A stretch of DNA of 32,000 nt. It comes from Candidatus Electrothrix sp. GW3-4. Its GTDB lineage: Bacteria; Desulfobacterota; Desulfobulbia; Desulfobulbales; Desulfobulbaceae. A model generated the notes under the pieces. The model did not search any database. It was not told the DNA's origin and saw only the letters and a list, made by a program, of their open reading frames with translations. Within the stretch, counting starts at the first letter, position 1; each line of letters opens with the position of its first letter. Of the stretch, positions 28,396 through 32,000 are shown one piece after another. Where the stretch lies: the NCBI RefSeq assembly GCF_037902255.1, contig NZ_CP147990.1, positions 2,700,001 through 2,732,000 of the forward strand. Direction: 5' to 3'. The position numbers were made by a program, and so were the translations under genes.

Positions 28396-29529
28396 ATGGA
28401 CCTCAGCACCCTGCCAAAGGCCTTTAGCCTCTGGTTCAGCACCTCCCTGCCCGATCTTGGCCAATACCAATTTGGCCAACGCTTCACTATTATCTGCCTC
28501 TATATCATCCTCAGCAAGGGAACGGATATTATTACCAGCAGAATCCTCCTCCCGCTTGCCACTCGAACCAGTTTTGATGTGGACGAACATTTTGTCCGCT
28601 TTATCCGGCGCCCGGCTGTCCTTTCTGTTTTTCTCCTCGGCATCCTCCACGCCGTCCTCCTGGAACCGACCTTTGCGCCCCCTTGGGATACGGCCTTGCC
28701 CAATCTGACCAAGACCCTGATCCTGGCGGTCTGGTGGATCGCCCTGATTCGGGAGATCACGGTCATGAATGAGAAGAACACTGGCTGGGCAGTGCGAAAG
28801 TTTGACAAGACCAGGTTCTACATGCTCAAGAACATCTCCCGGATTATCCTCCTCTTTATCGGGATTATCTGGGCCCTGATTATCTGGGAGGTTAACCTCA
28901 CCCCACTCTTCGCCTCAGCTGGTATTGTCGGTATCGCCATTGCCCTGGCTGCCAAGGACACCCTGGCCAACTTCTTTGGTGGCATTGCCCTGTTCACCGA
29001 TGCCGCCTATAAGGTGGGGGATTATATTATCCTTGGCAGCGGAGAACGGGGGGAGGTGGTGGAGCTGGGTATCCGTTCCACCAAGATCAAGACCCGGGAT
29101 GACGTACTGATCACCATCCCCAACTCCATCATGTCTACCACCAAGATCATCAATGAATCTGCCCCGGAGGTCAACTATCGTATCCGTATTGATGTGAACG
29201 TGAGTTATGATAGCAATCTTCGGGAGGTGGAAAAAGTGCTCCTCCAGGTTGCCGAGGAAAATACTGCGCTGGTAACAAAACCGGAACCCAGGGTCAGGGT
29301 GCGCAGTTTTGCTGATTCAGCCATCCTACTCCAACTCCTGGTCTGGGTGGAAGAACCGGCTCAAAGGGGCCTTCAAACCCACAATCTGCTCAAGATGATC
29401 CATATCGCCTTCCAAGAGCATGGAATTGAGATTCCTTTTCCTCAGCGCACTGTCCATTTTGATGCGGATAAAAGAGCCCCGAGAACTCTGGACATCGCCC
29501 CTACTCCCGCTCCTGATGATAACCCCTGA
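28396..29529 (+). CDS. mechanosensitive ion channel family protein (MscS-like)
   Basis: 377 aa with multiple N-terminal TM helices followed by the MscS core AAKDTLANFFGGIALFTDAAYKVGDYIILGSGERGEVVELGIRSTKIKTRDDVLITIPNS. Confidence 0.9.
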   Translation: MDLSTLPKAFSLWFSTSLPDLGQYQFGQRFTIICLYIILSKGTDIITSRILLPLATRTSFDVDEHFVRFIRRPAVLSVFLLGILHAVLLEPTFAPPWDTALPNLTKTLILAVWWIALIREITVMNEKNTGWAVRKFDKTRFYMLKNISRIILLFIGIIWALIIWEVNLTPLFASAGIVGIAIALAAKDTLANFFGGIALFTDAAYKVGDYIILGSGERGEVVELGIRSTKIKTRDDVLITIPNSIMSTTKIINESAPEVNYRIRIDVNVSYDSNLREVEKVLLQVAEENTALVTKPEPRVRVRSFADSAILLQLLVWVEEPAQRGLQTHNLLKMIHIAFQEHGIEIPFPQRTVHFDADKRAPRTLDIAPTPAPDDNP

Positions 29530-29803
29530 CAGCAACACCATTATTTTCTACACCTCGGCCCTTTGACCGCGCTGCCTGCTGGTCCGCCGGGTGCTGACCG
29601 AATTACAACAGGAATTCCCCGATCTCAGAGTAGAGTCGATGGATATCCTGACCCATCCCGGAAAGGCATTACAGCAGAGGATCAAAATGATTCCGACCTT
29701 ACAGGCCGGAGAGCAGAGGCTGAGCGGAATTTTTCTCCGCCCGGCCGCCATCAGGGCGTTTGTTGAGCGAATCCTGCGGGCCAGTCACGAGCCGAAGAAA
29801 TGA
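29516..29803 (+). CDS. thioredoxin-fold redox protein with in-frame TGA at the first Cys position of CxxC (candidate selenoprotein, U-P-R-C)
   Basis: Reading from ATG 29516 through TGA 29564-29566 gives MITPDSNTIIFYTSAL[U]PRCLLVRRVLTELQQEFPDLRVESMDILTHPGKALQQRIKMIPTLQAGEQRLSGIFLRPAAIRAFVERIL.... The order is a beta1 strand, U/CxxC, helix, cis-Pro (MIPT), then a GxxxxSG strand, which is a complete small Trx/Grx-like fold. The ORF-track version (GTG 29591, 70 aa) lacks beta1 and the redox motif. Confidence 0.65.
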
Positions 29804-30126
29804 CAGAGCCGACCAATCTGCCCTGTCATGCAACAGCAATTACCTCCACCTTGCTGCCTTGCTGCCTTTGTCCTTTTCTCGGGGCAAAATATTGCTCCTC
29901 AAAACAACTTCCCCACCCTATCACTCCCGCTCATCAAGAACCTGTCCCAGGGTAGAAACAACCACCTTACCGCTCAGAAAAAAATCACCTCTCACCCCTT
30001 CATCCGCTCCACCCGCCAAAGCGCAGGAGGTGACAGAGCCTCTTCTTTGCGGTATAGTACTCCCTGTACTCCAGCCAGACTCCGCTTGCACTATGCATTT
30101 ACTGAACTCTTTCCCCTTTCAATAAG

Positions 30127-31071
30127 ATGCAAACAAAAACACCTCCCCTCATCCTGGGCTGTTTCCTGAGCTGCTTGATCCTTTTCACGGGGACCGTGCT
30201 TCCAGCCCATGCAGAGTCCCTGCCCGTCTTTGTCTCCATTGCCCCGCAAAAATGGCTCGTTGACCAATTAGGCGGTGACCTCGTCAGCGTCCATATCCTG
30301 CTGGATAAAGGGCAGGAACCCCATACCTATCAGCCGACCCCGGAAAAGATGACCTTACTCTTTCGCTCCCGCCTCTATTTCACCCTGGGGATGCCATTTG
30401 AGCGAGAGATTGCCCGAAAAATAACCCACAAGAAAAACCCTGCCAGAGGGCTTCAGCTCATTGACGTGACAAGGGGCATCAAAAAGATTCCTCTGCTGGC
30501 CCATCATCATGGCGATGACCATGAAGAAGATCATGCGGAAGACGATGAAAACGACCATCAGGAAGTTGAGCAGCAGGAATACGCAGATCCACATGTCTGG
30601 CTTGACCCGCGCAATGGAAAAAAAATGGCCGCAGCTATAACAGAGGCCCTGATAAGCGCTGCCCCGGAACATGCCCCTGCCTTTCAAGAGAATTTAGCGG
30701 TCCTGCAAGAAAGACTCACCCGCCTCCATCAGGAACTTGCACAACAACTTGCCCCATTCCGAGGCACAACCTTTTTTGTTTTTCATCCCTCATTCGGTTA
30801 CTTTGCCCATGCCTATGAGCTACACCAAGAGGCTGTGGAGATAGAAGGCAAGGCACCCACACCCAAACAGCTCTACGCCCTTATCAAACAGGCAAGGGCG
30901 GATAAGATCAAGGTCCTCTTTGTTCAGCCCCAGTTTGACCGGAGAAGTGCCCAAACTGTGGCTCAGGCGATCAAGGGCAAGCTGGTGGAGCTGGACCCTT
31001 TGGCGGAAGATATCGAACAAAATCTCAAGTCGATGGCCGAGGCCATGCAAACGGCGCTCACACCTCAATAA
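30127..31071 (+). CDS. znuA: metal (zinc-type) ABC transporter periplasmic binding protein with His/Asp-rich loop
   Basis: 314 aa with a signal peptide and TroA/cluster-9 motifs (VFVSIAPQKWL, DPHVWLDP, FVFHPSFGYFA, VLFVQPQF). It has an acidic, His-rich insert (AHHHGDDHEEDHAEDDENDHQE) typical of ZnuA. Confidence 0.8.
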   Translation: MQTKTPPLILGCFLSCLILFTGTVLPAHAESLPVFVSIAPQKWLVDQLGGDLVSVHILLDKGQEPHTYQPTPEKMTLLFRSRLYFTLGMPFEREIARKITHKKNPARGLQLIDVTRGIKKIPLLAHHHGDDHEEDHAEDDENDHQEVEQQEYADPHVWLDPRNGKKMAAAITEALISAAPEHAPAFQENLAVLQERLTRLHQELAQQLAPFRGTTFFVFHPSFGYFAHAYELHQEAVEIEGKAPTPKQLYALIKQARADKIKVLFVQPQFDRRSAQTVAQAIKGKLVELDPLAEDIEQNLKSMAEAMQTALTPQ

Positions 31072-31092: not shown

Positions 31093-31848
31093 ATGACAGA
31101 TGCTGCTATCCAGCTCAGAGACCTCAGTTATTCCTATGATGACATCCCCGTACTCACCGATGTTTGCCTGGATATCTTCCCTGGGGACACAGCCTCTATT
31201 ATTGGACCCAACGGCGGCGGCAAGACCACGTTGATCAAGTTGATCCTCGGCCTGGAGAGCCCGGACAAGGGAACGGTTCTGGTCTATGGAAATAAACCCG
31301 AGCACGAGCGCACCCGCATAGGTTATGTCCCCCAGTACGCCCGCTATGATCCTCATTTTCCTATCTCACTCCTGAACGTGGTATGCATGGGACGGATCGG
31401 CAGTTCCCTCAGTGGCCGTTATACTCGCCATGACAAGGAGATCGCCTTAGAGGCCTTGACTGCCGTCAATCTCGCGGATCTGGCCAAGCGCCCTTTCTCG
31501 GCCCTCTCAGGAGGACAACGACAACGGGTCCTCATCGCCCGGGCCTTGGCTACGGAAAGCGACATCCTCATCCTCGATGAACCCACAGCCAGCCTGGATC
31601 GTCAATCGGAGCAACAACTCTTTGCCCTGCTGGCAAAACTCAACAAAAACATGATTATTCTCATGGTGACCCATGAAATAGGGGTTTCGTCTACATTTTT
31701 CCAGCGGGTGATCTGCGTTAATAATCAGGTCTTTGTTCACCCGACCAGTGAACTGACCGGAGAGCTGCTCCGTGACATGTACGGTGGCGATCTGCGCATG
31801 ATTCGCCATGACCATCGTTGCGGCCCCGGAGGGCACGAACATGACTGA
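31093..31848 (+). CDS. znuC: metal ABC transporter ATP-binding protein
   Basis: 251 aa with [25 protein letters not shown] and ILILDEPTASLD. It lies between the znuA-like and permease genes. Confidence 0.85.
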   Translation: MTDAAIQLRDLSYSYDDIPVLTDVCLDIFPGDTASIIGPNGGGKTTLIKLILGLESPDKGTVLVYGNKPEHERTRIGYVPQYARYDPHFPISLLNVVCMGRIGSSLSGRYTRHDKEIALEALTAVNLADLAKRPFSALSGGQRQRVLIARALATESDILILDEPTASLDRQSEQQLFALLAKLNKNMIILMVTHEIGVSSTFFQRVICVNNQVFVHPTSELTGELLRDMYGGDLRMIRHDHRCGPGGHEHD

Positions 31849-32000
31849 ACTGTGGGCCGCACTCTTTGATCCGGATCTGCCCTTTCTCCGCTATGCCCTG
31901 ATTACCGGTCTACTGGCCTCTCTTTCCTTTGGTATCATCGGCACCTTTGTCGTTGTCCGCCGCATCAGTTATATTGCCGGAGCCATCTCCCATTGTGTTC
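31841..32000 (+). CDS. znuB: metal ABC transporter permease, N-terminal fragment (continues beyond window)
   Basis: The ATG at 31841 overlaps the znuC stop. Translation is MTELWAALFDPDLPFLRYALITGLLASLSFGIIGTFVVVRRISYIAGAISHCV, the typical ZnuB/TroC N-terminus. Confidence 0.8.
   Translation, partial: MTELWAALFDPDLPFLRYALITGLLASLSFGIIGTFVVVRRISYIAGAISHCV

Follow-up and report, generated by a model that had tools for sequence, protein, structure and literature searches.

A likely selenocysteine-containing mini-thioredoxin encoded across an in-frame TGA in Candidatus Electrothrix sp. GW3-4 and related Desulfobulbaceae

Thioredoxin-fold proteins with a UxxC motif, where U is selenocysteine (Sec), form the largest class in the table of prokaryotic selenoproteins of a 2026 review, which lists a Sec-thioredoxin of the Treponema denticola type (PF00085), a Sec-glutaredoxin of the Geobacter type (PF00462), and a glutaredoxin-like protein resembling the N-terminal part of AhpF (TIGR02187) (PMC13188914). 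Here, we describe a gene of Candidatus Electrothrix sp. GW3-4 (assembly GCF_037902255.1, contig NZ_CP147990.1) that very likely encodes a further small protein of this kind. The stretch of DNA that was analyzed, referred to as the window, comprises 32,000 nt (contig positions 2,700,001 to 2,732,000) of a host genome that consists of a single contig of 4.64 Mb; positions below are window coordinates, and hairpin offsets count from the UGA, with its first base as +1. Like the bacterial UxxC thioredoxin-fold selenoproteins, the predicted product combines a thioredoxin fold with Sec in place of the N-terminal nucleophilic Cys of a CxxC motif and has Cys-containing homologs. Also as in those proteins, the coding region contains a putative selenocysteine insertion sequence (SECIS) immediately 3′ of the UGA, and the genome carries Sec machinery of the type common in Deltaproteobacteria/Desulfobacterota. 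Unlike the PF00085, PF00462, and TIGR02187 selenoproteins, however, the clade to which the protein belongs scores below curated cut-offs, has an invariant signature of its own, measures only 85 to 95 residues, and has a range of nearly a single order.

The listing of open reading frames for the window gives only a 70-aa piece of this gene, called from GTG 29591, which lies in the same frame as an ATG at 29516. From that ATG, 16 codons (MITPDSNTIIFYTSAL) lead to a TGA, which is followed by CCG CGC TGC (P-R-C). A previous reading of the DNA by eye, hereafter the sequence-only reading, had proposed that the TGA occupies the position of the first Cys of a CxxC motif in a small thioredoxin-fold protein, and the sequence is exactly as it described. 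We consider it very likely that positions 29516 to 29803 of the forward strand constitute one gene for a real selenoprotein with Sec at the internal TGA, and we infer that Sec is indeed inserted at UGA 29564–29566. The tryptic peptide spanning Sec17 in the predicted protein would be (M)ITPDSNTIIFYTSAL-U-PR. The features of the locus are as follows.

29516–29803, forward strand: predicted complete selenoprotein gene (mini-thioredoxin, 95 residues), translated as MITPDSNTIIFYTSAL-U-PRC...HEPKK; orthologs keep the whole frame, including the part before the TGA
29516–29518, forward strand: probable start codon ATG, with a 14-nt overlap into the 3′ end of mscS; the Electrothrix orthologs share both an in-frame ATG at this place and the overlap
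29564–29566, forward strand: UGA, the predicted Sec codon (residue 17), which opens the U-P-R-C redox motif; TGA in 35 of 35 distinct Sec-form sequences
29573–29575, forward strand: TGC, the predicted resolving Cys, residue 20 of UxxC, invariant in homologs
29581–29599 (+18 to +36), forward strand: candidate SECIS hairpin, stem GGUC(C)GC / GC(U)GACC with one C·U mismatch
29588–29592, forward strand: apical loop CGGGU of the candidate SECIS, 5 nt, beginning 21 nt after the UGA
29687–29698, forward strand: ATG-ATT-CCG-ACC, translated as M-I-P-T, which holds the cis-Pro
29693–29695, forward strand: CCG, predicted cis-Pro (P60) of the thioredoxin fold, invariant and directly preceding strand β3 (61–64) in the model
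29801–29803, forward strand: TGA, terminator of the mini-thioredoxin gene by translation
28396–29529, forward strand: mscS-family gene, the upstream neighbor, outside the selenoprotein; Pfam MS_channel domains are found in the orthologous neighbors

One line of evidence for this assignment is the conservation of the TGA together with its flanking peptide. A word-based protein search returned only seven close homologs, all of them 54- to 75-aa "hypothetical proteins" that start after the TGA. When the contigs of these homologs were read upstream in frame, a TGA was found at the identical codon in every one, preceded by a conserved peptide, for example MKKPDTVIILYTSAL-U-PRC and MEQQKNIITFYKSSI-U-PRC. 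The called starts vary among the orthologs, being GTG, ATG, or TTG at different codons. A six-frame search of 119 Desulfobulbaceae genomes located the mini-thioredoxin in 49 genomes from 13 of 16 genera, with exactly one in-frame TGA in most of the matches and none in eight. The Sec forms amount to 35 distinct sequences from ≈13 Desulfobulbaceae genera, Electrothrix among them, with the consensus ...(I/V)(I/T)FY(T/K)S(A/S)(L/I)-U-PRC... at the orthologous loci, and such conservation of the TGA and its surroundings in 35 distinct sequences takes the observation far beyond chance. It also excludes a sequencing error, which the original proposal had considered in the form of a TGC or TGT revealed by resequencing.

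Codons −9 to −1 before the TGA vary in the manner of translated sequence, with a mean entropy of 0.70, 0.66, and 1.29 at the three codon positions, and the corresponding downstream values are 1.02, 0.53, and 1.46. On these grounds, the sequence upstream of the TGA reads as translated coding sequence. The sequence-only reading had named one pattern that would speak against it, namely homologs that begin at the equivalent of 29591 with unconserved sequence upstream. This pattern is seen in no ortholog; strand β1 is conserved and its codons vary synonymously. The overlap of the ATG with mscS, which it had also reported, was confirmed, and the start at 29516, about which it had been uncertain, is supported by the conserved ATGs in the orthologs. 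As the ATG has no obvious Shine–Dalgarno sequence, translation may well be coupled to that of mscS through the 14-nt overlap.

The pairing of Sec with Cys, for which the sequence-only reading had suggested looking, is present at two levels. Nine Cys-form loci of the family have TGC or TGT at the codon that is TGA in the Sec forms (...FYKSSL-C-PRC...), and a HMMER search of 1.84 billion representative proteins gave 137 matches, which comprise full-length proteins of ≈82 to 116 aa and stubs of 52 to 73 aa that begin just past the motif. We aligned the window protein with 29 full-length database proteins, all of which have Cys at the column of the TGA (alignment A1), and residues C17, P18, R19, C20, P60, and F82 are invariant in this set. 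The full-length Cys homologs are labeled "hypothetical protein" in NCBI. One metagenome protein from JGI (P0017, 86 aa) has been called as ...FFKSGL-W-PRC..., that is, with the TGA translated as Trp; presumably, it is a selenoprotein mis-translated under a code-4-type table.

When 120 sequences were placed on a tree, the Sec forms fell in coherent clades, and ≈5 changes account for the Sec label, compared with ≈31 when the labels are shuffled. At least two changes between Sec and Cys are required by well-supported branches, in a tree that derives from only 77 columns and is poorly resolved. The range of the clade is essentially a single order: among 401 genomes sampled evenly across the phylum, only six carry it, including one further Sec form from a sister family of the same order. 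One metagenome-assembled genome (G110; 84% complete, 5% contamination) contains a Sec form as well as a Cys form (C193:2761-2991 and C345:1472-1702, loci L066 and L061), and the two sit in the same well-supported clade of the tree. They may be recent paralogs that differ by a Sec/Cys switch, or the bin may be mixed.

A bacterial SECIS (bSECIS) is described by a consensus with a loop of 3 to 9 nt, a stem of 4 to 16 bp, and a G in the first two loop positions, situated 16 to 37 nt from the UGA and with a minimum free energy (MFE) of −7.5 kcal/mol or lower (PMC13188914). The hairpin at 29581–29599 has the loop CGGGU, a spacing of 21 nt, and a seven-position stem with one mismatch, and it passes narrowly on energy. 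The sequence-only reading had drawn a stem-loop at 29580–29600 with UGGUC and GACCG arms (29580–29584 and 29596–29600) and had left open whether it would qualify. These arms are the outer part of a conserved hairpin that is specific to Sec forms and agrees with the published consensus, with borderline energy. The drawing holds for the hairpin but not for the size of its loop, which is 5 nt (CGGGU) rather than 11 nt because the inner pairs G23–C31 and C24–G30 close it.

To evaluate the hairpin, we compared the 35 Sec-form sequences with the nine Cys-form sequences, scoring the pairs of the Sec forms on a gap-free alignment (A2). Offsets 18 to 24 pair with 30 to 36, and the loop at 25 to 29 reads C-G-(G/U)-G-N. 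Synonymous sites in this interval are frozen in the Sec forms: the third codon positions at +24, +30, and +33 are always C, G, and G, respectively, with an entropy of 0.00, compared with 1.4 to 1.75 at the same positions in the Cys forms. Position +27 is only G or T in the Sec forms, and in the Cys forms it has an entropy of 1.35 (G, A, and T). Among the Sec forms, entropies at flanking synonymous sites range from 1.2 to 2.0, and the three-base periodicity is lost across +16 to +33 (0.56, 0.44, and 0.43). Folded locally, 34 of the 35 Sec forms adopt this hairpin as their MFE structure, and no Cys form (0 of 9) does; the mean energies are −6.5 and −1.5 kcal/mol, respectively. On alignment A2, 81% of the cells are paired, compared with 8 to 40% when the 3′ arm is slid. 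Every Sec form can make pairs C24–G30 and G23–C31, in three cases with both partners exchanged to give A–U, and pairs 20–34 and 21–33 are kept in 33 and 32 sequences.

Several observations weigh against the assignment of a selenoprotein with its own SECIS, most of them concerning the hairpin. The two outer pairs form in only ≈60% of the sequences, and position 22–32 is G–U or A–U in 22 sequences but a C·U mismatch in 13, including the window. Covariation is thin, consisting of one compensatory pair in three sequences (15 of 500 in a shuffle control), and RNAalifold on 54 nt yielded no more than the four core pairs, at a negligible energy. The energy of the window hairpin, −7.4 to −7.6 kcal/mol, is borderline, and in some genera it is −3 to −5 kcal/mol. 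Moreover, the hairpin is located within a conserved coding sequence (V-R/G-R-V/E-L), and part of its conservation is thus at the protein level. The fold of one sequence is indecisive, since the single-sequence MFE structure of 29564–29625 is no better than those of shuffled sequences (z = 0.28) and prefers an alternative hairpin. A scan of 29400–29900 against Rfam at E ≤ 10 gave no SECIS family, only two spurious microRNA matches. Apart from the hairpin, no obvious Shine–Dalgarno sequence precedes ATG 29516, and the six-frame search gave no match in six of the 14 Electrothrix genomes (G097, G098, G100, G102, G104, and G105; three of them single-contig), which reflects either a lineage-specific loss or a miss by the filter of this first look.

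Because formal covariation is weak, we rely on the contrast between Sec and Cys forms at synonymous sites, and this contrast supports 29581–29599 as a SECIS element. In the alternative fold mentioned above, GACC(G) of the UGA-CC(G) region pairs with (U)GGUC at 29580–29584 (window 29565–29584). Such a hairpin would sequester the UGA and compete with the 5′ arm of the SECIS, and both tetramers are near-invariant in the Sec forms; it may be a second RNA structure in its own right or may only follow from constraint on the coding sequence.

The organism is able to decode Sec. The presence of the Sec-decoding genes, which the sequence-only reading had asked to see confirmed, was established for selA, selB, selC, and selD alike. 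The host genome contains a tRNA-Sec (selC; 74.9 bits, gathering score 47), and its selA (622 bits), selB (381 bits), and two selD genes (346 and 234 bits) all score over the curated cut-offs. Each selD gene, both outside the window (G000:C1:2494348 and G000:C1:1922811; loci L001 and L002), has an in-frame TGA, in the contexts ...TCG-U-AAK... and ...PCG-U-VAQ..., and SelD is thus itself a selenoprotein in this genome, in two copies. Both TGAs are followed by strong hairpins whose loops, GAUC and GUUC, begin at +25, the same offset as in the mini-thioredoxin hairpin; these folds served as an internal control. A formate dehydrogenase (FDH)-like molybdopterin oxidoreductase, also outside the window (G000:C1:2064545-2065282, reverse strand), carries an in-frame TGA (...CARL-U-HAP...), and its SECIS loop, GUC, is at +23. 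With a score under the TIGR01553 cut-off, this protein is not a classical FdhA equivalog.

The full-length protein was modeled with AlphaFold using alignment A1, with a mean predicted local distance difference test (pLDDT) score of 91.1 and a predicted template modeling (TM) score of 0.80. The modeled topology is β(8–13)-α(18–33)-β(38–43)-α(48–53)-β(61–64)-β(67–70)-α(76–91). It puts residue 17 at the N-terminal end of the first helix and Pro60 immediately ahead of the third strand. In a Foldseek search of the PDB, thioredoxins ranked at the top (TM 0.65 to 0.76, 16 to 27% identity), and a profile search of PDB sequences placed MJ0307 (1FO5) first, at E = 2.8e-13, with Mt0807 (1NHO) at E = 8.6e-9. 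The model thus predicts a minimal thioredoxin fold, with the β-α-β-α-β-β-α order and both the CxxC position and the cis-Pro where the fold places them.

Three alternatives to a selenoprotein deserve consideration. Were the TGA a genuine stop, the product would be the downstream open reading frame of 70 aa (GTG 29591) or 54 aa (ATG 29639), and the 16 upstream codons would be untranslated or encode a micropeptide. Every public gene call does show a 54- to 75-aa "hypothetical protein," and TGA also serves as the terminator of both the mini-thioredoxin gene itself and mscS. The 70-aa product, however, would be devoid of strand β1 and of the whole redox motif, the high-confidence fold being predicted only for the full protein. 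The upstream codons, moreover, have the periodicity of coding sequence and line up with the N-terminal parts of the Cys homologs, and the called starts differ among orthologs, that of the window (GTG 29591) falling inside the loop of the candidate SECIS; we regard a genuine stop as very improbable. A nonsense change of an ancestral TGC or TGT Cys codon, whether in a pseudogene or through a sequencing error, would need only a single base, and Cys forms do exist in related genomes. It is nevertheless a negligible prospect, effectively refuted by the occurrence of the TGA in 35 distinct sequences from many genera and independent assemblies, by an intact frame under purifying selection, and by the coherent clades that the Sec forms make on the tree. 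Neither a true stop nor a pseudogene or sequencing error can account for the conserved TGA, its pairing with Cys, and the coding character of the upstream sequence.

A further alternative accepts that the UGA is read through but dispenses with SelB and a SECIS, so that residue 17 would at least partly be Cys or Trp, either by near-cognate decoding or, for Cys, by its attachment to tRNA-Sec when selenium is scarce. In model bacteria, UGA is prone to leaky termination when the next base is C, as it is here, and the hairpin is short and thermodynamically borderline. Leakiness does not explain, however, why synonymous sites are frozen specifically in the Sec forms and exactly where the genome's own SECIS loops lie. 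The genome also has the full Sec machinery, and a Trp at the catalytic Cys position would be inactive. We consider read-through of this kind improbable. The original proposal of a Sec-containing UxxC thioredoxin-like protein is thus supported, and each of the sequence-based checks asked for with it came out in its favor.

If the gene is decoded as we propose, a ribosome reaching UGA 29564–29566 would receive Sec from a SelB–GTP–Sec-tRNA(Sec) complex bound to the hairpin at 29581–29599, avoiding termination, and translation would run on to the TGA at 29801, where no such hairpin stands. The product would be a cytoplasmic, MJ0307-like mini-thioredoxin of 95 residues with the active site Sec17-Pro-Arg-Cys20. 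By analogy with the generic account of UxxC thioredoxin-fold proteins, which is what suggests its activity, physiological substrate, and reductant, its expected role is that of a thiol/selenol-disulfide oxidoreductase. Sec17, whose selenolate lies at the N-terminus of helix α1, would attack a substrate disulfide or a similar oxidized sulfur species, Cys20 would resolve the mixed selenenylsulfide, and the cis-Pro60 loop would hold the substrate. The oxidized Se–S form would then be re-reduced by a thioredoxin-reductase-type or thiol system.

The window protein stays below the thresholds of the established families. It misses the gathering thresholds of PF00085 (22.2 compared with 23.5 bits) and PF00462 (15.2 compared with 22.9 bits), as well as the cut-off of TIGR00411, the equivalog model for MJ0307 family thioredoxins (30 compared with 92.75 bits). 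All 30 members of alignment A1 match TIGR00411, every one under the threshold (best 3.9e-10), and the clade is by these scores a distant relative of that family and not a member. None of the named models for thioredoxin-like selenoproteins (Uxx-star NF041212/NF041114, SaoT NF040730, HUIPC NF047660, and TIGR02187) matched at its curated cut-off: TIGR02187 (PDO_seleno_TRX) scored 16.2 compared with 185 bits, a model reported as NF045501 "HUGP_GUXX-star" scored 11.7 compared with 325 bits, and the SaoT and HUIPC models gave zero matches at E ≤ 1. The clade can be recognized by the signature FY-K/T-S-x-L-[U/C]-P-R-C ... R-M-I-P-A/T-L ... L-S-G ... F.

The relationship to MJ0307 and Mt0807 (1FO5 and 1NHO) is seen in the 85-residue β-α-β-α-β-β-α architecture, which lacks the classical N-terminal extension of thioredoxins, and in a C-P-x-C motif at the same position. 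The clade differs from these proteins in its CPRC/UPRC motif in lieu of CPHC/CPYC and in being bacterial, the archaeal proteins being Cys proteins. The candidate SECIS, similarly, shares with the fdhF-type SECIS of E. coli and the bSECIS model (Zhang and Gladyshev, per PMC13188914) an intra-ORF stem-loop, a 21-nt spacing, a 5-nt loop with G at its second position followed by G/U, and an upper stem of 5 to 7 bp. Unlike the fdhF-type element, it is short and weak, is devoid of a conserved extended lower helix, contains a C·U mismatch in the stem, and has no Rfam match.

In Electrothrix, the gene order is Trm112p-like, MscS, mini-thioredoxin, and ZnuA/C/B, a synteny that is confined to the genus. 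No promoter-like site is found between mscS and the mini-thioredoxin gene, and one is present before znuA (30030–30058); the gene is therefore probably co-transcribed with mscS. The ZnuA-like substrate-binding protein (30127–31071) has a loop rich in His, Asp, and Glu (HHHGDDHEEDHAEDDENDH), and its gene is followed by those for an ABC ATPase (31093–31848) and the start of a permease (31808–32000), giving an operon of the zinc-uptake type. The neighborhood differs outside Electrothrix. At 12 loci (L038–L043, L048–L051, L053, and L057), a divergent gene for an HDAC-family deacetylase (PF00850) lies ≈200 bp upstream on the opposite strand, and at eight of these it stands beside a gene for a CBS-domain protein, an AcuC/AcuB-like pair. 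At four loci (L044–L046 and L054) the neighbor is an ADP-forming acyl-CoA synthetase, and at five loci a convergent hybrid histidine kinase gene lies beside the mini-thioredoxin gene. These neighbors make a link of the mini-thioredoxin to protein acetylation or acyl-CoA metabolism possible. Among the loci compared, the gene has no conserved co-oriented partner, and the substrate can thus not be read from its context.

Whether the clade is new as a selenoprotein family is a question on which we consider the chances evenly balanced. The proposal would be an uncatalogued family consisting of the Sec form of an unnamed bacterial MJ0307-like mini-thioredoxin clade with the motif U/C-P-R-C. This family would be near-universal in the Desulfobulbaceae, including the cable bacteria, with Sec predominating over Cys, a minimal SECIS of 5 to 7 bp located in V-(R/G)-R-(V/E)-L codons, and at least two Sec/Cys exchanges within one family. 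No curated family model or catalogue entry that we tested covers the clade, and text searches of the literature on selenoproteins or selenocysteine in cable bacteria or Electrothrix, and on "UPRC," found nothing. Older catalogues that lump proteins as "Trx-like" or "Grx-like" may hold a member.

A selenoprotein of this kind alters no concept, since UxxC thioredoxin-fold proteins are the commonest class of predicted bacterial selenoproteins and the kind is already well known. The main value of the finding is a correction of annotation: all public records examined carry only a shortened call of the gene, labeled "hypothetical protein," and dozens of genomes of Desulfobulbaceae and cable bacteria could be put right by a family model that places Sec at residue 17, which would add one entry to their selenoproteomes. 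Beyond annotation, the Sec and Cys forms make a clean natural pair, the thioredoxin-fold protein is very small and easily expressed, and its SECIS is very compact; the mini-thioredoxin would be a convenient system for studying minimal recognition by SelB and the catalytic benefit of Sec.

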